Positions 42,102 through 63,208 are shown, numbered from the stretch's first letter. The stretch is 63,208 nucleotides of DNA from Neophaeotheca triangularis (GCA_054600435.1 BAAIJX010000045.1:124001-187208), one strand, 5' to 3'. The notes: a model not told the origin generated them from the letters alone. A program made the numbers and translations.

Positions 42102-43236
42102 TCAAGTGGCTGCGAAGTGACCGAACACGATTGCCTTTCCAGAATTGTTGTCTTGTCGCTCAGCCTCTTCGAGCATGGATAGCAGATGCAAGGTCTTGAC
42201 GAAGACCTCTGAGTTTTTCGTTAGCCACGTGTCCAACATATCAGCTTCAATCAAGACTTGCCTTCGAACTCCACCTCGTAGCTTGCGGCAATCTCTACGT
42301 CGCTGGTGTACATCAAGGGTGTGTTTGTTCGGCGCCACTTTCGCTCTCTCACTCGAAACTTGATGCCTAGGATGTTGTCTCCAGTGTTGACCCAAAGTAC
42401 AGCAGGATCCTTGGGAGAGCCGCTGACCTCAGTGTCGGCGTCCGTTTGCTTTGAAGAGCTGCCGGAGGCTCCATCTCTGACGATGGCTACTGCATCCTGA
42501 TCAGACCACGTTCTGCTCTCGCATTGCGTGGCCAGCCAGTCTCGCCACACCCGAATAGTGCCCTCGGCGATGTTTTGAAGAGTGAAAAGCAACCCTCTTG
42601 GGCCGCTCTTGGCCAGATAGGAAACGGTGGATAATTGCGTGAAGAGATCGTGCGCATCGACTGTGACCGTTTCAAGGACGGAGTCTCTGTCCTCGACGAT
42701 ATCGGACTGCACGGAGTCTGGGTGAGTCCGCGAACCGGGCACATCTCCCGCCGGATGCCTTCTTTGCGCTATATCTTCGACCCTGTGGCGGCGGGGTTTG
42801 AACCGTGAATGCATTCGGTTGAGAATGGCAATCTTCTCGACGTAGCTAGACTTGCCTAGGTTACCTTCGGTCAACTTGTCCAAGCCATCTGTGCCTAGAC
42901 TGGTACAGAAGAAGCGGTTGGCGACAAGCCTTGCGGAAGGATGGTGGCATTCGAGGTAGAAATCGTATCCCGCCAGACCTGAGGCGATTTGTAGTCGATC
43001 GTGCACCAGGCGAATGATCAACGCATGTACATGACGGCAGGTCGGAGTCAGTGGCAAGAGTGATGGAGTTGGGAGAAGATTGAGAATCGATAACAGAATC
43101 TGGCAGGGGTATTAATGAAATCGCTCCTGGTTACGACAATGTCAAGGCATACTTCATTTGGTAGGGTGAAGATTGGGGGCTGCGCTTCCGAAACGGGCTG
43201 CCTACCAGCGTCTACTTCGTTCAGAGTCGTTGCCAT
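42102..43236 (-). CDS. F-box domain protein
   Basis: IFTLPNE|ILLSILNLLPTPSLLPLTPTCRHVH F-box across intron 43100-43152. A GC-AG intron at 42209-42261 restores the C-terminus EVEFEEVFVKTLHLL...SGKAIVFGHF. Confidence 0.82.
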
Positions 43237-43518
43237 CAATACAGATGATGATCGTTTCTTTCAGTCGGATGGAGGGGGATTGATAATGACTATGTCTCAT
43301 CAAGGGCAGTAGGGAGGTACATCCCGTCGCAAGCATGAGATGACGTGTGGTTCGATCACGTGCTACGTGTGACATTGGCGTTTGATCGACAGGCTGGAGC
43401 CTGGACTGGACTTTCGACTTCACCCTTCAACCTGTTCCTCTATACCATTCTTGCGCCATGTCAACTACTGATGCGAGTCGATAGTGAGCAGAGATTCTAA
43501 TTCTTCACTAACAGCTCA

Positions 43519-45171
43519 ATGGCGGCGCAGAATCGTCTCAACAATTTCGTGAACGGGCTAGACGGACAGCCAGCACACGAGCACAACACCCGAGATGGCG
43601 CGCGCGAAGTTCTCGGTCCCAACATGGATGGCGTCAAGCTAGGATACCACAATGGCAAAGCCAGTTCAAGCCAAATGAAGGCAAACGCAGAACCTTCTCA
43701 TCATCCAAACCACAGTCAGCATTTCAGTCGTGCCCCCGACAATGACCAAGCGGTCTTCGGGACAGATTCGAGCAATATCGATGTGTCCAGTGTTCGCAGT
43801 GAAGACATGGCGCAATTGGCGCAGCGTGAGCAAAGCCAGCAACAGCGCCACCATCAAGAGTCTCAAAGACGGCGCAGCGATTATGACTTCACCGAGGGAA
43901 CGGTCCCTACTTACGACGACCAGCAAAGCAAGCAGGTTTCGAAACAGTCTGGCAGGCCAATGCCGCCTCCGCCACCCAAGAATCAAGCCCTCAACACTCA
44001 GCAAGGAATGGCGCCGAGCAACCGGAACCGTCAACCTTTTGTTTCCGGCCGCGTTCACGGCGATACCTATCCTTCGGAATCATCGGGACCACCTTCAGCC
44101 GTCGCCGATGTCCAACAATCTCACGACCTGACAGCACAGCCGGCGCAAAGCCACCCAATCTCACGTCCAAACGATGTGAAAGGCGGTCTCACTCAGCGAG
44201 GGCTGAAACCGACGAGCAAGCAAGCGTTGCATCACGAGAAGCGCAGTCAAGAAGCTCTGAACAGTAGACAAGGCGCATCCTTTCATGATCCACATGGCGC
44301 CGTTACTTCCGGCTCTGAAGTACAAGCAAACGCTGGTTTCAGCTGGGCGCCTGCTCACCAGAAACCACAGCTTCAGCAAGAACAGCGAATTGTTCCGACA
44401 AACCAGAAATCGCAGCTAGCCATGCACAATTCACACCAGGGAGGGAAAAGCGGAGGATCTGCCCAGCAAGATGCCCCCGAAGCCTCTCGTCGACGGAATG
44501 TGCCCAAGCAAGAAGTGCAGTCTCACGGCCAAAACGCGCGCATGCACAATCATCAGCAGCAGGGCTACGTTCCGCATGGCAGGCAGGTAGCGTTTTCAGA
44601 CCTGCCTCATCAACCTCAGTCCACCCGCCATGGTCAACAGCTCGATGAAACGGCCCACGTTGACTCGGACGACACGGAGTACGACGAAAAGCAAGAAGAA
44701 GCGACTGAGAACGGCGAGCGCCTAGACTATCCGCCCCAGCAGCTCTACAAGATGGATTACGATGCACTCAAGAACGAAGAATTCGACCGTGGCCCTCATG
44801 ACAACCATCCGAACTTCTCAATGGGCCAGCACGCGCAGGATCTACCCTCACAGCTGCAGCAGTACAAGTCGGCGAGCCCGGGGCAGAAACAGAGGTTCCT
44901 CAACTCGCTGGATATCGCCCAATGGGAGGAAGCTGGCGACTGGTTCCTTGACCAATTCGGTGATATTGTCAGAAAGATGAAGGAAGCGCGCAAGAAGCGT
45001 CGTGCTGCTGCTCACGAGTTCGAGGCTGAGGTTGAGAAGAGGCACAATGTAATCAGCAGTAAACGCAAGTTGACCGACGAGGCGCTTGGGGAGATGCGTA
45101 TGAATGGCGATAAGTTGTTGCTGCCAAAGAAGGCGAAGGGGAAGGCGAAGGCGAAGACGAAGGAGGGATAA
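43519..45171 (+). CDS. ECM11-domain protein
   Basis: Q/S-rich disordered N-terminus, then LDYPPQQLYKMDYDALKNEEFD...QWEEAGDWFLDQFGDIVRKMKEARKKRR...FEAEVEKR. Confidence 0.82.
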   Translation: MAAQNRLNNFVNGLDGQPAHEHNTRDGAREVLGPNMDGVKLGYHNGKASSSQMKANAEPSHHPNHSQHFSRAPDNDQAVFGTDSSNIDVSSVRSEDMAQLAQREQSQQQRHHQESQRRRSDYDFTEGTVPTYDDQQSKQVSKQSGRPMPPPPPKNQALNTQQGMAPSNRNRQPFVSGRVHGDTYPSESSGPPSAVADVQQSHDLTAQPAQSHPISRPNDVKGGLTQRGLKPTSKQALHHEKRSQEALNSRQGASFHDPHGAVTSGSEVQANAGFSWAPAHQKPQLQQEQRIVPTNQKSQLAMHNSHQGGKSGGSAQQDAPEASRRRNVPKQEVQSHGQNARMHNHQQQGYVPHGRQVAFSDLPHQPQSTRHGQQLDETAHVDSDDTEYDEKQEEATENGERLDYPPQQLYKMDYDALKNEEFDRGPHDNHPNFSMGQHAQDLPSQLQQYKSASPGQKQRFLNSLDIAQWEEAGDWFLDQFGDIVRKMKEARKKRRAAAHEFEAEVEKRHNVISSKRKLTDEALGEMRMNGDKLLLPKKAKGKAKAKTKEG

Positions 45172-47792
45172 ATGAGGACGACCAACTCTGACGCGCGGAT
45201 GCATGGTGACTTGTCTTTGTCGAGGCGGTGTAGCAGGGTGTTGGGGAGGAGACTTGCCTTGACCTTGCTTTGTTTTCATTCGCTCTATGACCGAGATGGG
45301 GGACTTCACGTGGCGCACAGGGGTGAATTTGCTAGTTTTCGATACCCATTTGCTTTGATCGGATGTTCAGAAAGATGATGAAGACGATGGCGGCCTAAAG
45401 GTAGCTCGATAACTGCCCTCAACTCAGTAACTACTAATTAACACCATGCATTCGTTCCGAATTAAACGAGCCCACGGTCTTGGTCTCCGCGGCATCTCCA
45501 GCTTGACGTCCCGGATCGAAATCAAGCGACGAGAACGAAGACGGGCCGGGCGGACGAACGTACAAGTCACAGTACGCCGAGGATGCGAGGTTCCCTTTTG
45601 CTTCTCCATTCAACCTGGTCATCTCTCCACATCCCAGCGTAACGGTCTAGATACTGCATGCACCCCACGCTTCCATCAGGTACGGTACGTATTCCTTGAC
45701 GCACGACGACAGCAGGTGTACCAGACAATGCCCGTAGCAAGTGGGCTGGCAACGAATAGACCCGCACTCCTTATCGCCAGGAGAGTGTGAAGGCGCTTCA
45801 AAACTTGAGCGACATGATAGTGAGGGCGCCCGCTTATCGCCGCCCCAAGCACACGACATCTTACCTGCCTGTAGAAGTTTGGCTTTGCTGAGAAGACGAT
45901 AGGGACGCGTGGAAGCATGTCTCTACTGTATGAAGCGGTGAACACGATGGCCGCGTGTCATTGAGCCTTAGTAACACGAGAATCTCGACAAGTGGAACCC
46001 GACGTGTGGTATCTTTCTAGTAAATACGAGCGCCGCGAATAGAGAGGAAGTTGGCGTTACTCAAGCAAAGAGCAAAAAGCAGCACACCCGACACCCCTAT
46101 GAATCCCCTACCTTGCTATTACCAGCCAAGCAACAAAACAATCCCCATCACCTGCATAGAAAGGGAAGTGGTAAACACATCATCAATAACCAAACCCAAT
46201 ATTGCAAGTTTACCTGTATCTCCTAGTAAAACAACGATTCGCGATAACCTTTCTCCAGTCTCCGCAACCTCTCCGCATTGCCCCCGCGGAACTACCCCAC
46301 CAGCGAGCCGACCAACACGAACCAAGTCGTTCATACCTCGAGAAAGAACCGGATCAGCAACAATCGTTATCACGAAACAGAAGATGGCGTACAAACCACC
46401 AAGAAGTCTGCTGCTTCGAGTTGATAGGCAGAGGCGAGCAGTCCAGCGAGAGAAACCACCAACCACCAACCACCGTGCAACCACCAACCCCCAACGCAGT
46501 CAAACCCCCCCCGAAGAGCGAACCCCCAAATACCCAATAGCAACTCCGACACGGGCACCGGGACGACAAGCAAGAACACAATCCCCACCCGGGGAACGAT
46601 TAAGCTTTCCCACCCTCCCCCAAACCTCCCCCGATCGCGTAACCCGTTCCGTTCGTTCCACGCCAACATCCAAGCCAGACGCCTTCTAAAATGCAATTTC
46701 CTCGCCCTCAAGCCGTCCATGCATGATTCATCCAAAACCTCCCGCGCGAGCTGCTATGCCATTGCATACATACATAGGCAACATAGGTAGGTACATCATC
46801 ATTCGCCGTCGCGTAACAATTTGACGTAAACATCATTCAAGCCGCAAAGCCCGGCATTTACCGATGCGAGAGCCCGTCTACCCATTCTCTCCCCTCCGTT
46901 TCAGGGATTGTAACGTAACGTAACGTGACGTGTGTGTCCCGCTTGCTGTCACAGAGTTACCTTAACCTAGAACCGAGTGGACACCGCGGGAGTTGCCAGA
47001 GTTTGGGGCATTTTTTGACTTTTTGTCATCCGTCATCGGACGAAGACGAGCGGGAGAAAAGGGAGGGATGGAAAGGGCAGGCGGCAGGAGGGAAGGTTCT
47101 ATTGCTTGTTTATCCGGCGGATGGGCGGGATTGGAGTGCTTGTTTCCTGGAGGTCGTTGTGAATATCGAGCTAGAGTCTAGAAATGGTTACTGGTCGGAC
47201 AGCTGTGGAGGAGAGGGAGTTCAAGCAAGCAGAGATGAGAAAAGGCAGTTCTGAATTATAGGATGTTAAGAGTAGCGGCAGTAATACCTGATATTTCTAC
47301 TTCCAAACACCAGAAAAGAGCTCTTACGCAGCAAGTTTACGCGCACGAGCAGCGAAATATGCAAAAGCCATCCTTCCCTCCATCCACCCCAGATTGAATC
47401 GAGTCGAGAAGGTGGAGTCTTCCCAATCTGTCTCGCGCCGGTCCCTCTATCCATTTTCCTCACCGTTAAACGCCGTTTCTCAATCAAAACCCATTGTGCC
47501 CCTTGCCGTCCATCTATAATAACAGGAATGTACCGCTGAAACGCCTCGCCGAAAGTTTGAAATCGCGTTAGTGATGAGCTGGGTCTGGTTGTTGTTCGCT
47601 CGTGTGTAAATTCTACTTCGTCGTTGCTCGTGTCGAAGGAGAGGAGCGATGCAGTCGCTTTCGTATCTACTCTCCCATCGCGTCGTGATCAAATTCTTCA
47701 GCATGTGAATGCGACGGTCCCATCTCCTGCGTCCCAGACTTGTTCTGCAGCGGTGGATCGTAAAAAGCAATGCCCTCCAACTCGCGTGCAGC

Positions 47793-49427
47793 CTAAGCAC
47801 GCTGTTCTTGGGATCCTTCGCGATCGCCACCTGCCTCGCTTTGCCTAGCGCTGCTGTTACCGCTCTCCATACCACTGTCGGGGTTGACGAGCTCGTTGAT
47901 CTTTGTGTAGTGATTCTCTTTGGGCGCGACCATCGGGACAGGCAATTTGCGTTGTGCGCCGTCGCCTGCTTCCATGATTTCGCTGATGCGAAGGCCGCTG
48001 TGTTGAGCTGGAACGTACGGTTGTTGACCGTCCGCAGAGGGCTCGACAGGCGCGAGGGCTGGCGGTGGCTGATGTTGAAGGCTGAGGTGGTGAAGAGTGG
48101 GGAGTTGGACACCGTTGTGGAAGTATTGAGGCCGCAGACGTGGGGAGTGCGATGGTGTGGCGAGAGGGGTGTGGTCGGGTGTGGGCGAGTTGGATTCGTG
48201 AGAGAAAGATGGCGATGGCGGTGCAGTTGATTGAGGGGAGCCCGGTCTCGACTTCTTGGTCATGCGGTGAGAGTACTGGTCATCCTCGTCGTGAGAATGG
48301 GATCTAGACATTGGCTGAGATGTCGGATTCGACGAGTAGTGGTACGACGAGAGAGAGGGCATGCGACCGCTTCCGTAGGGGTGGGAGTGGTAGGGGTGGT
48401 TGTTGTACTGGTGGCGGGTAGGTCGTGGAAGCTGAGTGTTTGGTGGCTGGCTGTTTTCGCGTTCGACCTGAGATGCAGCAGTCGCAAGCAAGTTGATGTC
48501 CATGGGCCTGTGTAGACCGGCGGCTGGGCGGATGTCGCCACTGACATTGCGAGTCAGGTAGGAACCGGGGTTGCTGTTGTAGTTGGAGTAGGAGTGCGGC
48601 GGTGAGACGTTTGGCGAGCTGAGCTGGGAAGATGGCGCGGATTGTGTAGACTTTGGCGGTGGCGGCATCATCGGCATTCCCTGGTTCGCTGGGCTCATGG
48701 AGGTTGGTGTGTTGGATTGCGAGTTCATTTGGTTCATCTGGTTGAGGTGGTTCAGACTGGCCAGGCCACCCATGGGCTGTCCGTTTTGCGCAATTCCACT
48801 TTGAGGGAGCCCATTCGGCTGGAGGCCGTTCATCGCATTCATCTGCTGCTGCATCTGGTTGTTGAAGTTTTGATAGTTTTGCATTTGATTCATCTGGTTG
48901 ATCTGCTGCATTTGGCTCAGTTGCGCGAGTGTGTTGTTGTCAAACATGCCAGCTTGAGCAGCGGCGGCGGCGGCGGCAGCTGCAGCGACATGTTGCTTGT
49001 TCCCACGTCTTGAATTTGGGTTGTTGTGTATTCTCGAATGACGGGTGAGCTCGTCGGACCTGCTGAACCGCTTCGTGCATCCTGGGAACTGGCAAGCGTG
49101 AGGTTTTTCGCCCGTGTGTGTCCTAATATGGCGGGTCTGATGCTCTAGACGGTGGAAAGCCTTGTCGCAGAGAGGGCACTTGTATGGACGAGGCAAGTCG
49201 GGCCTGTGTTCGTCTCCGTTCTGCATGCCCATGGCGGAGGGCATACCCATGGCAGCGGTAGCCATGGATGAAGAGGGTGAGTGTTGAGGGGTCTGGTCCT
49301 GTTGCGCCGGCGTCGCTCGTTGCGCGGCAGGCGATCCGGCCGGGGTGGTTTGCGCCGACGGTGGTTGTGATTGCTGTTGTTGCGGTTGTGAGGCGTTTTG
49401 TTCCGGATTCAGCAGATGCGAGAGCAT
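47793..49427 (-). CDS. creA: Carbon catabolite repressor CreA/Cre1
   Basis: [63 protein letters not shown], poly-Ala, [23 protein letters not shown] and [31 protein letters not shown]. Confidence 0.98.
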
Positions 49428-52400
49428 GTGGGAAGGCGGTGGAAGGGCAAGGTTACGATAGAAGTACTACCGTAAGCCTGGCCAAGAGGAGTGGTGGTGG
49501 TAAGGTCGGGGTAAGGTAGGTATATAAGATCTTGGTTGTTGGAGCGTGGGGGAGGAGGAAAGAGTCGTTGCAGGGAGTCAGTCCGGGGTTGGTGCAGTAG
49601 TAGTAGTAGTAGCGGCAGAAGGCAACAGCCAGCGCGAGAGTGTCACGGGGAGAAGGTGAATGATTCGAGAGTGTAGTGGAGGGTGGTTGTGGTGGTGGTG
49701 GTGGTGGTGTGTATGACTGACTAGATAGACGACGAGGAGATTGGAATGGTGGGATGAGAGTGAGGTAAGGCAGATGGTGGAAAAAAGGAAAGGAACCTGC
49801 CTGAAATGGAGCGCGCAGCAGCCGCAGCGCGATTGCGAAGCGGCCGGGAGTGGGTGCGTGGGGAGACTCCACTTTCCCACCTAGCGCCTCCGATAACACT
49901 CTCACGCTTAGGTAGTACTCACGTCCCTCCCTCTCGACTCTTGACTAAACGAGTCTGTTCCTGCATGACGTTCCCATTCCACACCCCCCCCCCCCTCCCC
50001 TTCTCCTCTTCTTCTCGCTATCGCTGTCGCTGTCGCTGTCTCTTTTCCACGACCGACTCCACCCCACTAATAACTTTACTGCGTCTTAATTCTGGTACCC
50101 CTTCTCCCGCGGCTTCTTTGCAGGTGGCGTGATCGATTGGGAAAGACGATGAAGACGACGACAACAAAATACTGCTCGTCTGACTACATGATTAAGTACA
50201 GCCACAAACGGCCTCGCCTTTCTTATTTTTTATTTTTTTCTCATTTCTTTTTTTGCCTCTATTCCCTGCATCGTCAATATTCATCCTTTGCGCCGAGCCT
50301 CCCACGCATTCGGTCCATCCGCTCCGCTCATCAGGGGCCCCAGAGTCAGCTTGTAACAGGTATCGGAGGTACAGCCACAGACCGAGGGCTGAGTCCGTAT
50401 CTTCCCGGGACTGCCGAATCGCATGTGAGAGACATGGCACGGGTAAAAACTATGAAAATTGCCAACTACTACAATCGAACACTTGTACTGTCGGCAGAAT
50501 TCTTCTTCTTCTTCTTACCGTCTTCTTTGGATATCGCCTTTTGGCCGAGAAAGGTCGGTCATCCCGGCCGAATCTCGTCGCAACTACTCTCAGACCATTT
50601 GAAGGATCTGTTACGTTGGTCCATGTCTCGGCGAAGTAGGGCCGGCTTCATACCGGCGGAAAGGATGGCAAGGGGGAAAAAGGTTTGGAGCAGATTTTCT
50701 AGAAGGATTTTTGACGGCGACAATGTGGAGCTGTCATCTAGTTGCCTTCTGCCGTCAGTTTTGACTACCTACACTGTACGTACCGCTTTGTATCTTCGTC
50801 ATCACGAGCAATCGAGGTCATCCACTGTCATCGCTTTTCACGTGTTAATGTGTGTAGTAATAATAGTAGATGAGGATGCAGCAGCCATGTGTATGTATAT
50901 GCAGTATCGCCGGAACCATGTGCCCGTTGTGAAAGTAATAAGACGTTATCTCCTTTTCACTTCAGTACAAACTCACCGGCTCGTCTTTTAAGCGACACGC
51001 TCTCGATCCGACAACCGCTTCTCATTATCAAACCTCTCTCTCCTCTCACAATCCCGATCCTTGTGTCCATCGAGGTTTTGACAAGAGCCACGGCATGCGT
51101 CATGCGAGGATCTGCCTTCCCGTCAGGTTCTTGGTCGCAGGCTTCCCCAACTTCTCGGCACCCAGACGCGATATTGCGCGAAGTACCAACGTACCCAAAT
51201 CACCACTGTGCGTAGGGCTGTCATGATTGTGTCTGGCGGCTAAAATAATATATCCACGCATGGCGTAGAAGAGTAAACCGTCAGGCTTCAGCGACCATGA
51301 GGTGATTGGGCATCCGCAGTGCAACAAACATCGACGACTCGCCCAGATACCGCCGCCCGCGATAGCCAACGAATATCCGGCAATCGCGCGCCGTCGCTAT
51401 ACGTCCTAGCTATCATTGCGAGCGCACGGCAAAAAGTCCAAAGAATCTAATCTCGATAACAGCAAGCACCAACCAACCCGTGCCATTTTTGGCTGCCTCT
51501 ATAGGCCAGAAACCCGTCACGAACACCCCCGTGTCATGGTGCAGGAGGAGCGCACGCCGGGGGCAGTAGTAGTAATGAATGTCTGGGGTTTGCTTCTTTC
51601 CTCCGCACGTCGCTTACTGCTTGTTGTGTGTTGGCGACTGGTGCCGTTTCTAATGTCCGCGGGATGCCCATTATCGCGAACGCTACTGTACTGTCGGGTT
51701 TCTCAGTGGCTGAGATTGATGCCGGGACGAACAGAACACCCGGCATCGACCCCATCATCATGCGTACAGTATTGTATGTGTCGATGGAATCAAATCCCTC
51801 CGCCACGTCGGGCAGAAACTACGTGTCTCAGTCTCAATTCACAAAACGTCATCACCGCCAGCACTTCTGTACAAGGCTCTCCAATCATCTCAGGCATCAC
51901 TCCCGTCCACGTCTCTGCCACCTATCAAGATCTACGCTCTCGCGTGCGCATCTGTGGGGTGAGGCTGAGGCGTCGTGGAGAAAGGCCGGGCCGTGGGTGG
52001 GATGATGGGAATTGTCGCGAGATTCCTCCGCGCCACGGTGATGATCTGTTTGCGCCATGGATACAAAGAAACTTTCACCAAGCGGACATGAAAGATGTGA
52101 TAAGGTAGGTTAACTTGCGACATGTTTACTCCAAACCCACCACGCTACCTCCAACTGTCCTCACACGTCTCTCGGAGACAACGGCTTCGCCCTCAACACC
52201 CGATCATGTTGCCGACCCGAGCTTCCGGATAGTCTTCGGGCAAGGGCCGCAAGGCGCACAGGATGACCGGCTCTTCTTGGCATTTACTACTCTTCCTACT
52301 AAAAATCGCTGCCCGTTCTATTCCGCGTCGCTCTGTGGGGCTCCAGAAAATTTGAGGCTGCTGACTGATGGCCCTGGTGAGAGTAGATGAAATAAGAATG

Positions 52401-52969
52401 ACGTGCCCGGGCGTGTTTCTTGGCGACGGGACTTGATGTCTGCCCTGCCCATGTGGCTGTGCGCGGTGGTGTTTGCTCTGCCTCGAGAGATTTTGGGCGA
52501 AATGTCTTGGAGGGTGCGAGTCTGAGCTGGACGGTTTGGGTATTGTATGTGAGTGACGGCGGCGCTTCCTTGCGTCTGGACTCCTGAAGTGCCGATCAGA
52601 CGACCGTTGCGTGGCTGGATTGCGTTATCGGTGGGGATATGGCTATCTCTCTGCTGCTCTGCTTGTCTCAGCTGTTGGATTCAGAGTTGAGGGTTGCATG
52701 TGGTACACGGTATCTTGGCTTGGGAGATAATCATGGGAGTGATTGGGTTTTCGTGGGATGGAGGACGCTGCCTCGAGACGAGAGATAAGGTAGGATCTCC
52801 AGACGATCTCGGCAGGGTACTGACTCTTCTCGGAGGAAAGGAGCTCTCAGCTGCCTCTTGGCAAGTCGTTGATGGACAGGAGTAGATGCAACGTGGTCAT
52901 TGAATTGTAGCGAGCGAACAGTGCCGCGAGAGCGGACGTTTTGACAAGACTATCCCCCAAAAACATCCC

Positions 52970-54117
52970 CTACTCCTCATGCTTTCCGCCGCAAGCCTCA
53001 GCCTCAAACTCAGCATCAGGCTGAAACTCATAATAAAGCGTCTCGGGATCACTACCAGCTTCGAATGTAAACCGCGCGCTTTCCTCCGGCACGTAGACTT
53101 TGGGAACGCCATTTGCCGCTGCTGCTTCGACTTTCAGCTGGATCTCGCAGCTCCGCTCCATGAGCGTAAAGAGGTACGCCGCTTCGTCGACTGTGCTGCC
53201 GACGGTAAGGAGACCATGGTTGCGAAGCGTCATGGCTTTGCCTTTGGGGCCGAGAGCGGAAGCTAGGCGCTCGCCTTCTTCGGGCGTGAAGACTACGCCG
53301 CCGAAGTCTTTGTACACGGCTGGTGGGTGGGAGGTGGAGATGGTTAGTGTTGTTGTCGAGGGGAGGATGTGGGTGGAGTGGTGCGTCTTACCTTGCGCAT
53401 CGCCATAGAAGTAACAGGCGTCTTGATTCAGCATCTCAAGCGGCTGGGCGAAAGTACTCCAAGCTTTGCCATTGACGCTGTGGCAATGACAGGCTGCCGT
53501 GACGTCCTCGCGGGCTTTGTGGAGGGCGCTGTGGATGAGAAAACCGGCACCTGGGAGCCGAGAGCGTTAGTCGATAAGTCGAAGAGGCTGAAATATTGAG
53601 GCCTCACCATTCGCCGGCCGTGACAAATTGCCACCCACTGCTTTGCCATCGTAATCGAGCTGTATCATGTCGCTGGCTTTGAGCAGGCCAAAGTGTTTGC
53701 CCAGTGGGTTCGTCCAGAAGCTACTTGACGGTCAGTCTCTTCTTGTCCCCGGCGATTATTAAAGTGTTCTGAAAGCCTACAGATGTGGGTACTCAGGATC
53801 CCTCACGCTGATGTGACCCGACATGCCCTCCGTGTATCCCTTCCTCGAGAATACCCGAAAAGCCAGGGCCTAGGCCATACTGTCAGCTTCTGTCAATGAC
53901 CGGGCAGTCAGTAGTCTTCCCTTACCATGTGTGATAGCATCCATCGCCTGTGCTGGTCGAAAGTAGGAAATGTGGGAATGCCGGGGAGCGTTTGGCCCTG
54001 GCAGATCAGTTCGAGCGGCGTCTTCTCCTTCTTCTCGAGCTCTTCTGCGTGCGGAATGGTGGGTTTGACATGCACGGGTACCTCCACGTCGGTCGTTGAT
54101 ACAGCCGAAGGCGCCAT
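52970..54117 (-). CDS. Class II aldolase/adducin-family protein
   Basis: Spliced over four introns: [53 protein letters not shown]...CHCHS and [20 protein letters not shown]. Confidence 0.9.
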
Positions 54118-54612
54118 GATGACGGGTTGCTTCGTCGTTTCTTGGTGGCGAATGGGGATGTAGAAAGCGCCGAGTGTGGATGTTCGAGATGGGAAGGAAA
54201 GGAGAAGTCTACTACCTTGCGAGCATTCAATGAGTGATGAGAATATATTCTTCTCTCTCGGTGCCACGCCGTGCACGCCCTGTCGATACCCGATAAGATG
54301 ACATGCAGGGTCGGGGTGAGGTGCGCTTGTCCAGGTGCCCAGGTGTGGAGAGTGGAGAGAGCTCCAGCGGGCCGTAGAAGAACGAACCTCACCTTACATT
54401 ATTAGTTGTACCTTACAGTATCAAATTCATTGCAGTCCGGGGCCTCTTATGCCAGGAAACAGTAGTACACAGTGACGTGAGAAAACATGCTTGAGATCTT
54501 TGATTCTGATTGGCAGCATATCTAGGTCAAAGTTACAACAATACCTATAAGGTACCGGAGCCACTCCTCTGATGCTGCCTCACCACCGTTCTGGACTGCC
54601 CTCTCCGCGCCG

Positions 54613-57192
54613 CTATTTCGCAGTCGCCGTGTTGCCCGCCTTCATAATGCTAGTAATGACCTCTCTGTCAGTCGACTCCCTATACCTCTCCCTATTGGCC
54701 GCATTCTCGTCGTTGCCAAAAATCGCATCCCTCTCCCCTCGCTTCCTCTGTTGCACCCCGCGTATCCTATCCTCGAAACTTTGCTGAGCATTGGCATAAT
54801 GAACCGTGACTATGTTTGGGTTACCGATCCGGGCTGCTCTGGAGATGCAGTGATCTTCCACACTCGGATTCCAACCAGGCTCGACGAAAAAGACTTCACT
54901 TGCGTGGACAAGATTCAACCCTTCGCCGGCCACCTTTGTGGTGCAGAGCATGATGCGGGGGTTGGGTTCGTCGACGGTATAGTCTTTGCCGACTTCCTCG
55001 AACAAATCCGTCACTTTCTTCCTTTCGTCAATGGATAAGAGCCCGCTGAAGCGTAGAACGGGAAGATTGATCACTTCACGAATGCCCTGATGGACAATAT
55101 CCAATGCCGCCAAATACTCGGAAAAGATGATGATTTTGTGAGTGGCAAGGTATCTTCTACGCTCGGAAGCGGTCGGGAGGGCCATGGCTGCGCTGCCGAT
55201 GGTTTGGAGGGCGACATCCAAGAAATGGATCAAGACGTCCATCTTTTCCGACCACCATTCATATTTTTTCGCTTGGAGGCTGTTGATGAAGAGTTGACGA
55301 TTCTTCGCATTCGTCGATGTACGATGGGGCGCAATCTCAATCTCCAAGTCGTCCGAATTGTCGTGTTGGGTTGCCGGCAAGCCCACGTCCTCGCCCAATC
55401 CCCGCTGGTATGCCTCTTCATCAAAGGGCAACAAATCGTTGCTCGTATCATCGGAATATTTGGCTTCGATCAGACGGAGATGGATACAATTCATCCTTGC
55501 CTCGTGCATGATTTTGAAGGCGGCCCCTTTTCCGCCTTGCCCTTCTACTTCTCCTTCTCCGCCCGATGCTTGTGGGTCTTTTTCTTTTGCTTCTTTTGCT
55601 TCTTTCGCCCTTTTAATCTTCTGCAACTTGTCCCACATGTCAATGCTCTTTACTTGCGTCTTTTGGGTTTTGCTGCCGAGATCGAAGAGCCAGATTTCGG
55701 TTGCATAATGCGGCACATTGGTTATGCGACGACCTTGGAAAATGTCGAAACGTTTCCTGCAGACGGTGACGAGCGACAAGACGGCTCCCAGGCAAAACAG
55801 TCTGAATACCGGTCCATCGCCCGATGCCGAGGGTTTGAGCTTGGTTTTGAACAATCCGTTGAACGTGTTGATGTTGCGCCAAGGCTTCAACCGCAAGAAC
55901 CTCAACAGGGAGAAGATGTCGGTGAGTCTGTTTTGATGTGGCGTGCCGGTCAACGCAAGCCTTTGATCGGCTTTGAAGTCTACCAATGCCAATGCGCGTT
56001 TGGAGTTTGGGTTTCGAATGTGGTGGGCTTCGTCCAAGATGAGCAGGCTCCATTTGATATTGAGCAGCGGCGCGTCTACCGGGTCCATCTTGGGCATCTC
56101 CGGCTTGCGCGCCCTGGCCCCCTTTTGTTCGGCAATCTTACGCTGGACGTATACGAAAGTGCTGGTGGCCCCATCGGCTTCCATTTGCCAGTAGTACTGA
56201 ACCTCCTTCGCCTCCGTCCACTGCTGGCAAACCAGATCATAGGTCGTCAGGACCACGTCAAAGTCTGCCCATTGCTTGACCCCCCACTGGAGTGTCCTTC
56301 TGGAGGCGGTGCGTTGATTGAGAACCTTCACATCGGCCTTTTCGAACGCTTGCACCCAGTTGTCGAGGAGAGACAGGGGCATGACAACCAAGACGGGCAT
56401 GTGTCGGTTTCCCTTGGCGTCCGTTGGGCCTCGTTTGTTCAGCATGCGTTGGACGAGTGCCACTGTCGTATACGTCTTGCCAGTTCCCATTTCGTCGGCC
56501 AAGAGGGCGCCACTGTGCTCTTGCAGCAAATGCTCCAACTGGCCCACCCCTTCGCGCTGATGATCAAACAGTGTGACCCTTTCGAACCCTGGCACAGATG
56601 CTGGAATCGATCGCCCGTGGTCGGTGAACCTCGTCTTGTCGGCATACATTCGCGCCAAACCCTTGCTGTAGCTCTCCCAAACCTCTTCGTAATCGTCACC
56701 CGTCCCTTCCTGGTTGAATTGCTCAATGTTCTCGCTGGGTAGGTATTTCTTCTTCTTGAGTTTTCTCAAGATTTGCGCCTTGGATGGATTGGCATTGCCA
56801 ATCAAGTGACCATCCGCCTCCAGCAGTGCCTTGGCTTCAGCCATGTCGACATCCTCTCCAGCCATTCCTTTGGCACGAATAATGTACTGCTCATTCTTTC
56901 TCAATTGCTCGAGATTGGCTTCGGACAGTGCTGCGCGTGCCTCTTCTTTCTCGGCTCCTTCCTCCATTCCCTGGATCCTCATAAACTCCGTTTCGTACCG
57001 TCGTTTTGCAGTGTTCAGCCATCCTGAACAGGGAACTTGGAATGGTTCCTCCTGCAAAAGTGATTCGAATTCCGCTTGCCATGAAGGTTCGGGCACATTC
57101 AGGGGTGGTGCCAGGACATATTCCTGTTGCATCGGCATTGGGAGTTGTCTCGCGTAGTAATCAGGGTCGAAAGGAATGTCGTTGGTAGACAT
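54613..57192 (-). CDS. Divergent intronless SNF2-family ATPase (Rad5/Rad16/Lodestar-like core, no RING)
   Basis: LFDHQREG, LLADEMGTGKT, DVVLTTYD, LILDEAHHIRN, LALTGTPHQNRLTDIFSLLRFL, KIIIFSEY, GEGLNLVHASEVFFVEPGWNP and SRAARIG. Confidence 0.9.
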   Translation of the reverse strand: MSTNDIPFDPDYYARQLPMPMQQEYVLAPPLNVPEPSWQAEFESLLQEEPFQVPCSGWLNTAKRRYETEFMRIQGMEEGAEKEEARAALSEANLEQLRKNEQYIIRAKGMAGEDVDMAEAKALLEADGHLIGNANPSKAQILRKLKKKKYLPSENIEQFNQEGTGDDYEEVWESYSKGLARMYADKTRFTDHGRSIPASVPGFERVTLFDHQREGVGQLEHLLQEHSGALLADEMGTGKTYTTVALVQRMLNKRGPTDAKGNRHMPVLVVMPLSLLDNWVQAFEKADVKVLNQRTASRRTLQWGVKQWADFDVVLTTYDLVCQQWTEAKEVQYYWQMEADGATSTFVYVQRKIAEQKGARARKPEMPKMDPVDAPLLNIKWSLLILDEAHHIRNPNSKRALALVDFKADQRLALTGTPHQNRLTDIFSLLRFLRLKPWRNINTFNGLFKTKLKPSASGDGPVFRLFCLGAVLSLVTVCRKRFDIFQGRRITNVPHYATEIWLFDLGSKTQKTQVKSIDMWDKLQKIKRAKEAKEAKEKDPQASGGEGEVEGQGGKGAAFKIMHEARMNCIHLRLIEAKYSDDTSNDLLPFDEEAYQRGLGEDVGLPATQHDNSDDLEIEIAPHRTSTNAKNRQLFINSLQAKKYEWWSEKMDVLIHFLDVALQTIGSAAMALPTASERRRYLATHKIIIFSEYLAALDIVHQGIREVINLPVLRFSGLLSIDERKKVTDLFEEVGKDYTVDEPNPRIMLCTTKVAGEGLNLVHASEVFFVEPGWNPSVEDHCISRAARIGNPNIVTVHYANAQQSFEDRIRGVQQRKRGERDAIFGNDENAANRERYRESTDREVITSIMKAGNTATAK

Positions 57193-57209
57193 TTTTGCTG
57201 GGGAAAAGG

Positions 57210-57554
57210 TGGAGGATGAGGAGAAGGAGGTGGTGATGTTGTAAGAGAGAGAAGGAGAACAGCCTTTTTATCTTCTCACCAGGCACGGACCAGTTTGGTT
57301 TGCGCGGTGGAGGAGGAGGAGGTGGAGGAGGTGGTGGTGGTGGTGGTGATGTTGTAGGAGAGAGAAAGAAAGGAAAGGGGCAAGGCCTTTTTATCTTCTC
57401 ACCAGGCACGGACCAGTTTGGTTTGCGTGGTGGGGGAGGAGGAGGAGGAGGAGGGGGAGGAGGAGGTGGTGGTGATGTTGTAAGAGAGAGAAAGAAAAGG
57501 AAAGGGGCAAGGCCTTTTTGTATTCTCACCAGGCACGGACCAATTTGGTTTGCG
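57210..57554. repeat. Three tandem copies (periods 123 and 127 nt) of a promoter-like unit upstream of the SNF2 gene
   Basis: Core TTCTCACCAGGCACGGACCA(G/A)TTTGGTTTGCG at 57273, 57396 and 57523. Each is preceded by GGA/GGT runs and GGTGGTGATGTTGTA. Confidence 0.92.
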
Positions 57555-57735
57555 TCGATATTGAAGTCAAAACGTCAATATCGAAGTAGATAGGCTCGTC
57601 AATATGGAGCTCTTTGCTTTCACTTGTCGTTCCAAGTGAGTTTATGCTCGATATTGAAACCTCGATATTGAAACCCCAATATCAAGTTCATCCAAAAGTG
57701 GAGTAGCGTGACTTCCGTGCTCGCGCTTTATATCT
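57555..57735. promoter_or_regulatory. Cluster of six TCRATATYGA-like quasi-palindromes plus TATA-like element (module A)
   Basis: Sites at 57555, 57575, 57599, 57648, 57662 and 57676, then GCTTTATATC at about 57725 followed by a CT-rich tract. Confidence 0.65.
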
Positions 57736-57825
57736 TTCCCATTTCCACCCACCTTTTCCTTTTCTTCTACAACCAAACCTCACCCGCCGCCTCCACCGCC
57801 GCCTCCCTCCCTCCTCCCACTAGCA

Positions 57826-58220
57826 ATGCCGTCATCTTCAATACCCTTCCAACCACAACTCCAGAGGCTCGAGCCGGTGCTTGTCGTGTTTTGTCCGTTG
57901 ACAAAATCAAAGTTCATGATGTCGGTGAATTTGTCGGCATCAGTGTTGCCGTTGTCGCCATCAAATATGGGGATGCCGCCCTTGTAGCCATCCGAGGTGT
58001 TGCCGCCCTTGTAGCCATCAGAGGTGTTGCCGCCGTTGTCGACATAGCCGCCATGAGAGATGAATCAACGTCCATGATGTCGAGGGGTTGCCGCCATCAG
58101 GAGTGTTGTCGTTGCCGTTGCCGTTGCCACCATTGTCGCCATCCGAGATAATCTCACCATCGAATGTGGTGATGCCGCCGTTTCACAATTTTGGCTTACA
58201 AACGACGAGGCTATGGTGAA
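57826..58220 (+). pseudogene. Decayed Pro/Ser-rich ORF with 27-bp internal repeat
   Basis: ATG 57826 after TATA and CT tract: MPSSSIPFQPQLQRLEPV...MPPL*PSEVLPPL*PSEVLPPLS, later LPPLSPSEIISPSN. It has in-frame stops and frame disruption. Strand is uncertain, since the opposite strand reads as G/N/D repeats. Confidence 0.35.
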
Positions 58221-58440
58221 AAAGATTGCCAATTTATTGGGCAAGGGTTTGTATATGCCGAGTCGGGGTGCAGAAGCCAAAGATGATGGCCGGGATGAGG
58301 GCTGGAGGTGGTAACCGGGACAAGGGCTAGGGTGAGGGCGGACATGATGACGGAGATTATGACCTAGGTAGTGGTGAAGGACTCCCAGAAACAAGCGCTT
58401 GCCATGTCTCTTCTGCTTCCGGCTACCTATTACTCATGTT

Positions 58441-59656
58441 CTACAGATCCAGGAACATGTCCACGCTGTCCCTACTGTAAGCCGTCGTACCATTGACATC
58501 GAAGAGAATCGCATCGGCGCAACTGCTTCCCACGGCAGGGTTCGTCGCCCAAGCAGCCTCCCAGTAGCTAATGCCCTGTCCTAATCTATTTGGCAAGCCC
58601 TGAAGGACGTCGATGATCCTACCAACCCACTCTAACTGCCCAGCCACCGATTGGGGGATGTTTGGCTCACTTAACTCCGGGGCGCCCTCGTTGTCGCAGA
58701 CCACAGGCCAGTCCGTCTCAACGACATGGATGGGTTTGCTATAGTTTTGTGCAATGGAGGTAAGCGAGTCGTCTAAGGCTGCAATCGTGGCACCTGTGCC
58801 GTAGTAGGGGTAGATGGTAAAGCCAAAGATATCCCAGTCATCCTCTTCAACAATTCCGGTCCCAACCAGGGCGTCAAACCATCGGTCCTGGATGGTACGG
58901 TTCCAGCCATTGTCGGTGTGAATCATGACCAAGGGCTCATTGACGCCAGCTGCCACCGCATCACGAACGCCATTCCGTGCTGCCGTGTAGACTTGAGCAA
59001 AGCCTGTGAAATTGGCGATACGTTCTTCCCTGGGCTCGATGTTGATATCGACTCGACCAAAGGGCCAGAGCATGCCGAAGCGAATCTCGTTGCCGAGGCT
59101 AACCATTGCAAGGTCAATGCCTTCGTCCGAGAATGACTGCAAAGTTGAGGCCACGTAGTCGCGAAGGGTTTCCAGCATGGGTTCGAGTGTCGTTGGCCAG
59201 CCGTTGGGGATGTTTTGCGTGCCTGGATCGGCCCAGGTAGAGCTGAAGTCTGTTGGCGAGTTAGATGTACGGTCTCTCGCGGCGATGAAAGGGTTTGGGC
59301 TTACGATAGTTGAGATAGATCTTGTAACCCTTGTCATTCAGCCTCTTGGCCAAATTCAAGGTGTAGTTAAGTCCATGGGCGCCATCGCCGCCAACAGGAT
59401 CGACCCACAAGCGAAGGCGAACAGTGTTCATGCCACCATCTCCGAGAATATCTTCTGCCGGCCTGATGGTGTCGTTACGGGCGGAGTCTCTGAAGACATA
59501 TCCGGCTTCTTCCACGGTCAGCAGAGACGAAAGGTCGTGGCCTGCGTAAAAGAACGGCTCGGTATCGTTACTGTAGCGACCGGCTGGGCCTTGGGGAAGG
59601 GCAAGGCTCGGCCAAGTCAAAAGAAAAAGACTCAAGAGGCTCGTGAGGAAGTTCAT
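58441..59656 (-). CDS. GH53 endo-beta-1,4-galactanase, secreted
   Basis: Signal peptide, GHDLSSL, GMNTVRLRLWVDP, YLNY|HFSSTWADPG (intron 59250-59304), acid/base SLGNEIR and nucleophile VVETDWP. Confidence 0.93.
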
Positions 59657-60602
59657 GGTCAACCAATATCCTCAAACGAGGAAGGAGAGCACCGAAGGTA
59701 TGTGAAGTTGCCTTTTTTGGTAGCCAAAGAGAGCAGAGTTGATCACGCTGCCTGTCATCAGCACCCGCCTCTTATAGCAGCGTGCCCAGACAACATGGGG
59801 ACAGTGGAGGACTCGAGGGCCACGAGGGTGCGTTTGGAGGAGTATTGCATGCTGCAGTCTAGCCGGGATACTACAGGTGCGTGTCAGCAGTATCAGTAAC
59901 ATCCTTCTACACATGAAGCCGTATGGGGAACTAATGCCATGCTTATATGCAGCATGACCGACGGCCAAGGTGAGAGATACTCCGGGCGGTCCTATCGTGA
60001 AGCAATGGATGCACCTCTTCTCCGCAAGCAGCGCATACGGCAAAGTGGAGGGGAAGAGGATCGTCTGGTGTCGAGGAGACAAAGCTACTTGTACCGACCA
60101 GGGAGAGGTCTTCTTCTCGGAGCTCGGGTATAAAGCGCCCGAGCGACCGTGCACCAACCGGGACAGGAAATATTCAACGACACCTGATCTTCTATATAGC
60201 GAACCACTCTGCATCGAAGCCTCGAAAATGTCATTTCTGCAGTCTCTTCTCGGCTCGTAAAGAGGGTTCTATAGAGACGGTCGTGCCTAGAATCTCGGAG
60301 CAATCACGCCGGCATCGAGCAGGTTAAATGGCTATAACAACGTGCTCGTATCTTTTTCTTCACTGTTCGCCGGAGGCTTAGAGCCCACATGCTTCTAAAT
60401 ACTTCCCGTTCTTCCTATCTAGGAGTAATTAGTATCTCTCAAGCATTGCTACGCTAAACTGCGTCGTTCTTCGCATCGCTCCGAGACAGTCATGCTTTAG
60501 TACCTAGTGACGTCTACGAACTAATTAAATAGGTTGTCGAGATACTATATAAGTAGTAGAAGCTGTAGACGGGCCCGCGGACCCAAGAGCACCGCACCTA
60601 TG

Positions 60603-60730
60603 GAAAATCAAACCATCCTGCTAGATGTTACCGTCTCTCTAGAATATCAAATCATCCCGCTAAAGATTACATTTACCGTACCTCTAGAAAATCGTCATAT
60701 CCCCGTCTAAACCCCTCCTCTAAACCCCTC
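60603..60730. repeat. Short degenerate direct repeats in a TpA-rich region
   Basis: gaaaatcaaaccatcctgcta...ttaccgtctctctagaa is repeated as gaatatcaaatcatcccgcta...ttaccgtacctctagaa, followed by tctaaacccctc twice. Confidence 0.55.
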
Positions 60731-62285
60731 TACTAACTACTACGAACTTTTGTAGTTCCTTACTATCCTTTCTATTCGCATCCTTACGCGTTAGAGCTAG
60801 AATAACTAAAAAGTAGATACTATAGTAGTCGCCTTCGTCGACGATATATTTTTATATTTCGTAATACCTCTTTTTACTAGTCTTTAGCGTCTAGACGGGG
60901 CATAGACACCTTTAGGGCCTTCTTTAGGCGTAAAGTTACATCTATAAGTACTACTAGTAATATTAGAAGTAAATTTAGAAGTAAAGGTAGAAGTAAAGAT
61001 AGAAGTAAGGGTAGAAGACTAGAAGTAAAGGTAGAAGTAAAGGTAGAAGTAAAGGTAGAGGATAAGAAGTAAATCTAGAAGTAAAGGTAGAAGTAAAGGT
61101 AGAGGATAAGAAGTAAAGTTAGAAGTAAGGGTAGAAGTAAGGGTAGAAGACTAGAAGTAAAGTTAGAAGTAAAGGTAGAAGTAAAGGTAGAGGATAAGAA
61201 GTAAAGTTAGAAGTAAGGGTAGAAGTAAGGGTAGAAGACTAGAAGTAAAGTTAGAAGTAAAGGTAGAAGTAAAGGTAGAGGATAAGAAGTAAAGTTAGAA
61301 GTAAAGTTAGAAGTAAAGGTAGAAGACTAGAAGTAAAGTTAGAAGTAAAGGTAGAGGATAAGAAGTAAAGTTAGAAGTGAAGTTAGAAGTAAAGGTAGCT
61401 AGCGTATCTTTTCCTCCTCCTAATCTCGGATCTTCAAAAGGTGTACAACGAGATGGCCGAGCTAGTCAACCTTAAATACAGTATTGCTGTCTTAACGAAT
61501 AGTAAAGTCGGGCGAGGTAGCAGCCTAATTGAATAGGGTGTAGGCATCCTTCATCGCAAAAGCCAGTTTATCGTTTGCCTTAAGGGCAAGGAGTTCGGAT
61601 TAGGCGCTACGCTCCTTGACTTGTATCAGCTTGTCGACAAGACTTCCGAGCTAGCGGATCCTGTAAGTCTTTGCGGTGACGGTGCCGAGGTTCAAGTCGA
61701 AGAAGAGTCGGATTTTGGCATGGTCGAATAGGTTGTAGGCATCGCGGACTACTACAGAGAGGTCGTCGTTAGCCGCCCGTGTTTCGTTTCTGATGACCAT
61801 TAGCTTTGCTACAAGACCTCTAAGTTAACGAATTCTGGAGCTAGGTCTGGCATTCTGGTCTAGGGCAAAGGAAGTGGTCGCTTCCGTAAAGTCGAGAGAG
61901 CTATACGCGGATGTTACAGCAAGTTCGAGCTTCTTCACGCGGGCGAGTAGAGCGTCGGCGTCCGAGAATAGGTTTTCGTCGAGAAAGTGTTCGCATATAG
62001 TCGCAAGAAAAGTACGGCTCTGTTGTGGATTGTATTGGGCATTGTTAATGGTTTCACCTAACGCCTGTCGTAGGAGATTATCGTGTGCCGGGTCACATTT
62101 GTATGGGATCAGTATTGTCTAGTCTTGTAGGGATCACGGAATACACACCACGCCAAAACGGCAGAATGTGCGGCTTCTTGACCAGCCCTTCGAGTTATCC
62201 GTCTGCTGTTGAGGGTATCATGATCCAACCCCGCCTGGTGATTGGTGGCATACGCTCTTGCTCCAGCTCCTGCCGCAAGAGGCAT
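60720..62285 (-). pseudogene. RIP-inactivated orphan gene with three ~55-60 aa helical repeats
   Basis: A long protein-like frame at about 62100-61400 (CDPAHDNLLRQALGETINNAQY...) is interrupted only by TAA/TAG at positions readable as CAA/CAG. Coding-like sequence resumes at about 60950-60720. Strong TpA excess. Confidence 0.7.
60963..61398. repeat. Minisatellite of 12-nt AGAAGTAAAGGT-type units with an 88-nt higher-order period
   Basis: GAGGATA marker recurs at 61102, 61190 and 61278; 8-nt inserts AGAGGATA and AGAAGACT. Confidence 0.95.
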
Positions 62286-62523
62286 GTCGTCGAGAAATAG
62301 GAAATAGGTCGTCGAGAAATAGCAATGAGAGCTAGCAGGTTGGGCAAGAGGCGGCGGGGCGGCGGCGGCGGCGGCGGCGGGGCGGGGCGGCGGCGGCGGC
62401 GGCGGCGGGGCGGGGCGGGCGGTGGTGGTTGTGGTTGGAGAGTGGAAGAAGGAAGAAGGTAGGTATGAAACTGTTTAAGTAAACAGGACTGAACAGCGGG
62501 AAAGCTCGGACTATAACCAGGCG

Positions 62524-62770
62524 TCGATATCTATCCACACAACTGTATAGATATCGAACTCGTCATGGATATCGGTGTCGCAATGTCAATATCGTAGCGT
62601 CGATATCAAAGGTCGGCGGGATTAAACGTCAATATCGAAGCGTCGATGCCAAAGTCGGCGGGATTATGGCGGTATGAAACGAGCTTGGCTTATATCCCAC
62701 CTTCTTTCCCACTTCTTCCTCTTCTTCATCTTCTTCCTCTTCCTCTTCCTCTTCCTCTCCCTTCTCCTTG
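62524..62770. promoter_or_regulatory. Second cluster of six TCRATATYGA-like sites plus TATA-like element and CT tract (module B)
   Basis: Sites at 62524, 62548, 62566, 62586, 62600 and 62629, GTCGGCGGGATTA twice, and GCTTATATC at about 62688 followed by CT-rich repeats. Shares the 17-mer AAACGTCAATATCGAAG with module A. Confidence 0.65.
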
Positions 62771-63208
62771 TATTGACACCAACAGATATCCCCCCCTGCA
62801 TCAGAGTAGCTCCCATCATGGCGAGATCAAAGGCGAAACCATAATGAGCGCCTGCTCCTGAACACTTCTCATCCTCAGCTGACTCACTCTATCCTCCTTC
62901 GAGCCCAATCGTTTCCTCGGGCCAGACTCAGCTCCATCGTGGAGAAATCAATCGCCAAGCCAAACACCTTCAATCTGTCAAGGGAAAGACACCAGCGCCC
63001 CGTCATCATCGTCGTCGTCAAAAAAAAAAAAAAAAGGACAGCCATGGAAGGGGGCCTGTAAGCAGTATTCATATGCTGTAATCATAGCATAATAGCATAA
63101 ATGACTGTTTCCTGATAGATGCTAGCTGCCCATGCCAATAAGATAATCATGCTCGAAAAGACCAATAAGAAAATCAAAAAAGCCCCCAAAGATCAAAGCC
63201 CCCCCCCC

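Follow-up and report, generated by a model that had tools for sequence, protein, structure and literature searches.

Two clusters of TCRATATYGA-like sites in intergenic DNA beside a divergent SNF2-family ATPase gene of Neophaeotheca triangularis

A stretch of 63,208 nucleotides of Neophaeotheca triangularis (GCA_054600435.1 BAAIJX010000045.1:124001-187208), hereafter called the window, was analysed with a focus on its last part, from position 54613 onwards. The window reads as ascomycete (Pezizomycotina-type) nuclear DNA. Two modules located 5 kb apart each contain a cluster of sites resembling the near-palindrome TCRATATYGA. These clusters are real, far beyond chance, specific and unique within the window, which is also the scope of all the enrichment and uniqueness figures given below. 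Both modules are intergenic, with a minus-strand ATG on one side and, on the other, a TATA-like box followed by a CT tract. Module 1 is found next to an intact gene coding for an SNF2-family ATPase, whereas the neighbours of module 2 are decayed. The features of this region are the following, with positions counted from the first letter of the window (ORF, open reading frame; RIP, repeat-induced point mutation):

54613-57192, minus strand: SNF2-family ATPase gene, single exon, intact, 859 amino acids (Pfam SNF2-rel_dom 4.9e-42, Helicase_C 1.1e-12)
57193-57555: purine-rich leader, then a 123-bp tandem repeat (2.4 copies at 57262-57555)
57555-57685: module 1 site cluster, six TCRATATYGA-like sites
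57686-57825, plus strand: TATA-like GCTTTATATC (57726-57735) and CT-rich tract to the ATG at 57826
57826-58440: repeat-rich stretch, no supported gene, no Pfam match
58441-59656, minus strand: GH53 galactanase gene, intact, two exons (Pfam Glyco_hydro_53 7.3e-48 and 3.2e-12)
60000-62110: RIP-mutated repeat block, delimited from RIP indices
60964-61398: 12/44-bp tandem array, inside the RIP-mutated block
61402-62118, minus strand: decayed ORF, a 239-codon reading with seven in-frame TAA/TAG stops, no Pfam match
62112-62285, minus strand: 58-codon ORF whose start faces away from module 2, no Pfam match
62340-62475: (GGC)n / GGT purine-rich tract
62524-62652: module 2 site cluster, six sites and one degenerate copy
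62685-62815, plus strand: TATA-like GGCTTATATCC and CT-rich tract to the ATG at 62816
62816-63208: no ORF (eight codons, then a stop), A16 run, terminal C-run

The exact motif TCRATATYGA is present five times in the window against 0.17 expected, and none of 100 shuffled sequences contained five matches or more. In the pattern scan, four of these matches (57555, 57575, 57648 and 57662) are grouped within 57555-57671 in module 1 and the fifth one (62629) is located in module 2. With at most one mismatch, 22 matches were recovered (4.69 +/- 1.81 expected, 10 in the richest shuffle), and 10 of them are concentrated in the two modules, which represent about 0.4% of the window. With at most two mismatches, each module displays six sites per 150 bp, at positions 57555, 57575, 57599, 57648, 57662 and 57676 in module 1 and at positions 62524, 62548, 62566, 62586, 62600 and 62629 in module 2; the seventh copy of module 2, at 62643, is degenerate. 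The hexamer CGATAT shows the same concentration, since 10 of its 31 occurrences in the window are found in the modules, where 10 of the 12 sites carry it on one strand. The perfect palindrome TCGATATCGA is absent from the module sites, each of which combines a CGAT half with a degenerate one. The central ATAT is the most constant part (12-13 of 13 sites). The bases flanking the sites are asymmetric, and in the same direction in both modules: C at position -2 (10/13), G at position -1 (8/13) and A at position +10 (9/13).

The window was also scanned for any non-simple 7-mer present in at least four non-overlapping copies in 150 bp. Six loci were detected in the 63 kb, of which four correspond to tandem or microsatellite arrays (2132; 24413-25437; 57945-58111; 60908-61392) and two to the modules, which use the same words. 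Beyond the tandem arrays, the modules are the only repeated-7-mer clusters of a window that contains 17 Pfam-supported genes. A weaker cluster at 17132, composed of five sites at two mismatches or fewer and of none at zero or one mismatch, is inside an ORF.

The organization of the sites is similar in the two modules, each of which opens with an inverted site pair. In module 1, this pair is formed by sites 1 and 2, 20 bp apart from start to start, and the last three sites form an array with a period of 14 bp. In module 2, the pair extends from 62524 to 62557 (14-nt arms, 6 nt apart), and a duplicated 43-bp unit contains two sites 14 bp apart. The spacings common to both modules are thus 14 bp (the 10-bp site plus 4 bp) and 20-24 bp. 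Local tandem units add sites, on one hand a 14-bp unit in module 1 (2.1 copies at 57647-57675) and, on the other hand, the 43-bp unit in module 2 (1.9 copies at 62585-62666). As this local duplication supplies a part of the count, about four independent site origins are to be considered per module. The folding of module 1 as single-stranded DNA gave a z-score of -4.62. We also observe that GTCGGCGGGATTA is present twice within the duplicated unit of module 2 (62609-62624 and 62651-62666); it includes TCGGCGG, whose resemblance to the core of the yeast URS1/Ume6 site we take to be, in all probability, a coincidence.

The comparison of the two modules reveals that they share the exact 17-mer AAACGTCAATATCGAAG, with a local alignment score of 34 against 15.6 +/- 2.2 for 200 shuffles (maximum 27). 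Elsewhere the similarity is lost. The parts comprised between the TATA-like box and the ATG give a score of 25, which is not above chance (shuffles 19.1 +/- 3.1, maximum 33), and the flanks and spacers of the modules align no better to each other than to unrelated parts of the window. An initial annotation of this DNA, made from the sequence alone, had described clusters of TCRATATYGA in two modules, with no such cluster elsewhere in the window, a layout repeated at a distance of 5 kb and a shared exact 17-mer in otherwise unalignable modules. All these observations are confirmed by the present counts, scans and alignments, and the elements of the layout (purine tracts, boxes GCTTTATATC and GCTTATATC, CT tracts, and ATGs at 57826 and 62816) are present in both places. 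However, GGN and CT tracts like those of the modules also occur near 2150 and 49690, so that a part of this common layout is generic for the genome.

Because the 17-mer is shared while the flanks are unalignable, retained binding sites fit better than a recent duplication. Sites kept amid unalignable spacers would have the look of constrained binding sites, which is not a proof of constraint. An older event has nevertheless to be considered, in which one intergenic region was duplicated long ago and diverged, its motif being re-amplified by replication slippage without any present function. The order and orientation of the sub-elements are the same in both modules, the flank asymmetry is common to all sites, as common descent predicts, and the 14- and 43-bp units lie in very repeat-prone DNA. 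Moreover, the block adjoining module 2 is RIP-mutated, and so was once duplicated, and it has a paralogue elsewhere in X1, one of the four sets of sequencing-run contigs (X1, X2, X3 and X4) that were aligned to 43209-63208 at 80% likeness or more. Against this explanation, the 17-mer and about eight independent 10-mers are unlikely to survive when the similarity of the flanks has been erased, the modules are devoid of RIP signature, and the X1 paralogue of 62008-62110 ends before module 2 at the same likeness threshold. We regard a neutral relic of this kind as unlikely.

The interpretation that we prefer, with a confidence falling somewhat short of even, is that the modules are site clusters for one sequence-specific DNA-binding factor, module 1 serving the SNF2 gene. 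The putative recognition core would be CGATAT, included in the longer sequence cgTCRATATYGAa, and the paired and 14-bp-spaced sites suggest a factor that is dimeric or whose binding is cooperative. Module 1 is located 360-490 bp upstream of the SNF2 ATG. The 123-bp repeat (57262-57555) multiplies the DNA found just upstream of this ATG, including the minus-strand TATA-like AGATAAAAAGG, and before its expansion the distance would have been about 110-250 bp. The copy number of this repeat may be uncertain or variable, because the X1 contigs break and loop back there. Module 1 would most likely be an upstream activating or repressing element of SNF2. Module 2 would be a second such element with decayed neighbours: its left side is occupied by a RIP-mutated repeat, and its right side is devoid of ORF. 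Taken together, the modules suggest shared regulation from promoter-like intergenic DNA; what we infer from this arrangement is that a protein binds the sites, that they function as promoters and regulate SNF2, and that there may be some transcription on the plus side.

Concerning the plus side, the reading frames that start at the ATGs of 57826 and 62816 are limited to 53 and 8 codons, which leaves bidirectionality unproven; neither ORF has a Pfam or Rfam match. Non-coding plus-side transcripts may be compatible with these results. On the opposite strand of 57826-58440, the sequence reads as 27-bp repeats rich in Gly, Asn and Asp codons, broken across two frames. The bidirectional promoters of the initial annotation are consequently not supported. 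Its description of the flanking genes holds for the intact divergent SNF2 ATPase and for the decayed neighbours, but not for the plus-strand genes, and its co-regulated gene set is reduced to one intact gene (SNF2) and relics. The dimeric transcription-factor site that it postulated is kept as the best available reading, without a gene set of several members.

Several observations weigh against a dedicated factor. SNF2 is the only intact gene adjoining a module, neither module separates two divergent real genes, and a real gene starts on the minus side at module 1 only. Local tandem duplication, in DNA with a general tendency to slippage, has produced a part of each cluster. A literature search with the motif strings matched no fungal factor among the titles listed, which look like those of works on primers or cloning sites, together with one Drosophila DREF paper. 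Finally, a constant central ATAT with variable CG positions is the opposite of what is seen in the sites of Zn2Cys6 regulators.

Site clusters are known in fungal divergent promoters, such as the Gal4 sites of the GAL1-GAL10 upstream activating sequence and the TCG-N5-CGA sites of AflR in the aflatoxin cluster. Like the modules, these systems contain several near-palindromic copies between divergent gene starts, and the copies recur in another promoter at a distance of a few kb. In contrast to them, no cluster-specific regulator gene is evident beside the modules, and there is one intact target gene.

The SNF2 protein possesses the motifs I, II, III and VI of the family (GTGKT, DEAH, TGTP and SRAARIG). 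A HMMER search against 1.84 billion representative proteins recovered about 25 near-full-length relatives of 736-990 amino acids, with 29-38% identity (E 1e-80 to 1e-44) and none above about 38%. A word-index search missed these relatives entirely, its best match having 31% identity over 32% of the query, and a profile search via the word index returned generic Rad5/Rad16 proteins only and no member of the HMMER family. None of the 25 family members matches the Pfam models of RING or HIRAN; they contain the SNF2 and helicase domains only. The insert between the two lobes of the window protein has a single cysteine. Members of the family have in common an N-terminal motif GWL(D/N)N. We noticed that three of them have degenerate ATPase motifs (Walker A or motif III).

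The best match of the family profile in the PDB is Rad5 (6l8n, E 1.1e-75). The predicted structure has a mean pLDDT (predicted local distance difference test) of 74.8, residues 1-165 being of low confidence, and Foldseek placed 6l8o and 6l8n first (E 4e-23), followed by every SNF2 remodeller. In Rad5 of K. lactis (6l8n/6l8o) as in the window protein, the SNF2 core is composed of two lobes separated by a long insertion. Rad5 and Rad16 have a RING between the lobes, and Rad5 a HIRAN domain, whereas the window family has neither of them and differs from Rad5 by its specific GWL(D/N)N motif and by the low-confidence N-terminus. On these similarities, the protein is best classified as a Rad5/16-like ATPase without RING, belonging to a small divergent family. 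A search of IMG/VR with the SNF2 protein found no close relative.

The initial annotation had seen in the region an accessory island, corresponding to a mobile element or an endogenised virus. In this interpretation, 54.6-63.2 kb would be a large mobile (Starship-like), virus-like or selfish module with its own regulator sites. The absence of any SNF2 relative above the identity limit given above goes in this direction, as does the position of the region at a contig end beside RIP-mutated DNA. Giant-virus SNF2 clusters also appeared among the generic SNF2 matches of a language-model look-up, which is a lead only. The window resembles Starships by its Pezizomycotina host and by non-housekeeping genes beside RIP-mutated DNA, and differs from them in that no DUF3435 captain or known auxiliary gene was found in the scanned ORFs and that the region is present and syntenic in a second isolate.

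The comparison samples argue against such an island. X2 is another sample under the same organism label, about 0.6-3% diverged. X3 comes from another study and has another organism label and a low depth. X4 has the same organism label, is less than 90% alike and aligned only around 44.9 and 47.9-49.2 kb. Two further samples (X2 and X3) are informative for presence or absence. X2 covers all 30 bins of 43209-63208 with a depth of 90-176, like that of the flanks, and no empty site was found. One of its contigs (53130-54757) bridges the class II aldolase to the 3' end of SNF2 and another (57714-58489) bridges module 1 to the 3' end of GH53, so that the neighbours are the same. X3 is represented by four pieces (54552-54783, 57058-57300, 57513-57718 and 62558-62864) which contain parts of SNF2 and both modules. 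The site clusters, with their common spacing and orientation, are thus present in two further samples. In X1, the depth is flat (111-137) over 54.5-60.5 kb, which indicates a single copy there; it is raised at 60.5-61.9 kb (array and repeat) and lower at the contig end.

The differences between X1 and X2 in SNF2 (44/1402 and 18/584, 3.1%) are close to those in the neighbouring ECM11 region (27/969, 2.8%). Lower values were obtained for the C2H2 region (23/1954, 1.2%) and for GH53 (4/687, 0.6%). In X3, the piece 57513-57718 shows 2 differences in 206 nt against 12 differences and one gap in the neighbouring 57058-57300, which is weak evidence, from a small sample, in favour of retained binding sites. 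We also observe that indels are more abundant in 57714-58489 than in any other stretch seen, which would be expected of non-coding or decaying DNA between module 1 and GH53: X2 lacks 213 bp at 58220-58434 and has 66 gap letters over these 776 nt.

The GC content of the region is similar to that of the rest of the window. Domains of DUF3435, Rep/Hel, DDE transposase, integrase or capsid were not found in the ORFs scanned in 49-63 kb, the sequence ending at 63208, in line with the remark of the initial annotation that no transposase or recombinase is visible. A literature search combining Starship, DUF3435 and SNF2 returned nothing. By the criterion that the initial annotation had itself proposed (a region fully syntenic, single-copy and conserved in relatives), the island is largely refuted among close relatives, and we regard it as very improbable. 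We also considered the two direct modules as long terminal repeats; only the 17-mer is shared, and the interior contains GH53 and no gag or pol domain, so that this candidate was rejected.

In 60.0-62.1 kb, TpA/ApT is 1.5-3.0, (CpA+TpG)/(ApC+GpT) is 0.22-0.61 and the GC content is 0.37-0.45; a second set of values for this block is 2.88-3.03, 0.22-0.42 and 0.37-0.43, respectively. RIP is expected to give a high first ratio, a low second ratio and a depressed GC content. The composite RIP index reaches 2.66 in this block and falls from 2.61 to negative values over 62.0-62.5 kb. It is negative in SNF2, in GH53, in both modules and in the rest of 52-63 kb. Module 2 abuts the block yet shows no RIP signature. 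The RIP invoked in the initial annotation is thus real, but for 60.0-62.1 kb only, and does not extend to SNF2, GH53 or the modules.

The block belongs to a repeat, because X1 has extra diverged contigs over 61903-62110. One of them stops matching at 62110, where the RIP signature and the decayed frame also end. At 60812-60945, seven of the nine X1/X2 differences listed are A/T in X1 and G/C in X2, which is the direction of RIP; the differences in 61896-62058 are likewise mostly G/C in X2 against A/T in X1. RIP may have acted after X1 and X2 separated, its target being a repeat of which at least one other copy exists. The 58-codon ORF at 62112-62285, off-frame to the RIP-mutated ORF, is probably a truncated relic.

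Module 2 is located precisely where the only block with a strong RIP signature stops, which raises the question of a boundary or insulator, where CGATAT arrays would recruit an architectural protein shielding the SNF2 and GH53 euchromatin from the RIP-mutated heterochromatin near the contig end. BEAF and DREF are insect proteins that are not known to have a fungal counterpart. Drosophila BEAF-32 binds the word CGATA, and DREF the site TATCGATA. A BEAF "single element" is defined in PMC2605929 by at least three CGATA in 200 bp; the counts of four CGATA in module 1 and six in module 2 reach this value. BEAF-32 sits between head-to-head genes according to PMC3483549. The modules have in common with the BEAF-32/DREF clusters the presence of CGATA in both orientations, at a density of at least three per 200 bp, close to promoters and between starts of genes arranged head to head. 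They differ from them in that BEAF-32 and DREF are insect BED-finger proteins and that neither module displays the dual-core layout, with its AT-rich spacer of about 200 bp. The likeness would be an analogy of mechanism only. Module 1 does not adjoin RIP-mutated DNA. A boundary function is considered improbable.

Dense words of the TCGATATCGA type, in both orientations over about 150 bp, are also a property of the subterminal transposase-binding repeats of DNA transposons and of miniature inverted-repeat transposable elements (MITEs). Metagenomes were scanned for two sites 4 bp apart, which gave at least 120 loci, and viral contigs gave two loci. Among the 122 loci listed as matches (120 metagenome and 2 viral), 28 have at least four sites per 200 bp. 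In at least nine metagenome loci, a block of about 165 bp with TATCGATA / TCGATATCGA repeats ends in TAACAACCCTG and is followed by a different flank in each; few long ORFs are found there. As the flanks after TAACAACCCTG differ from locus to locus, this block has the signature of the end of an element of the MITE or DNA-transposon type, in unrelated organisms of lower GC content.

By comparison with this family, the modules could be relics of transposon ends, namely what is left, after decay or co-option, of the transposase-binding subterminal repeats of an element of the hAT or MITE type. However, neither module is bordered by a terminal inverted repeat or a target-site duplication, and the terminus of the metagenome family is absent: AACAACCCTG has four one-mismatch matches against 3.89 expected, none of them near the modules. 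In addition, the modules are direct and not inverted relative to each other, no transposase domain was detected in the scanned ORFs, and the organisms to which the metagenome loci belong are unrelated, with a GC content of 0.37-0.50. This origin appears improbable.

The various analogies can be assembled into one speculative scheme, which we mention as a long shot. In a Pezizomycotina lineage, the CGATAT arrays would be a fungal counterpart of the insect CGATA insulators, recognized by a dedicated factor (possibly a BED-finger protein derived from a transposase, like DREF/BEAF); having originated in subterminal repeats of some DNA transposon, they would act as combined promoter and boundary and keep the orphan RING-less SNF2 gene expressed at the RIP edge near a chromosome end.

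The other genes of the window complete the description. Its Pfam-supported products include Zn2Cys6/Fungal_trans regulators, the Hrq1 helicase, an acyl-CoA-type AMP-binding enzyme, an Akr1-like DHHC palmitoyltransferase, mannitol dehydrogenase, a sugar transporter, Dak1, ECM11, a C2H2 factor and a class II aldolase. The GH53 gene has an intron at 59250-59304 (signals GTAAGC..CTAAC..CAG), and its product displays, among the matches listed, 52% identity with an Aureobasidium GH53. No motif site was found in the upstream region of this gene in the window scan at one or at two mismatches. Pfam searches with the read-through of the decayed ORF, the 58-codon ORF, the 53-codon ORF and 15 further ORFs of 49-63 kb gave nothing above threshold. 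Rfam returned two sub-threshold matches in the window at E <=1, neither of them in a module, and the scan for tRNA genes found none. A tblastx comparison of 57.7-58.5 kb and 59.65-63.2 kb with the window revealed low-complexity matches only and no paralogue. The window stops at 63208 in a C-run and not in telomere repeats, and this position is probably the contig end, given that the contig recorded for the SNF2 protein of the window measures 187,208 nt and that 187,208 - 63,208 = 124,000. The AT-rich minisatellite at 24413-25437 (GC about 0.28-0.38) lies between the DHHC palmitoyltransferase gene and a WD40/DUF2415 gene; it is composed of 18-, 25- and 43-bp units, each with AATTTAC and the small palindrome TTTGCTCnnGAGCAAA, and is not RIP-like.

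This analysis separates a solid sequence observation, the two site clusters, from an island reading that goes too far, and it shows where RIP acted. The modules are an ordinary kind of feature and give no evidence for a new mobile element. If the sites bind a real factor, the pair of modules would constitute a clean cis-element for a fast-evolving family of RING-less SNF2 ATPases, with a core of 10 bp, a spacing that is defined and only one intact gene as target.

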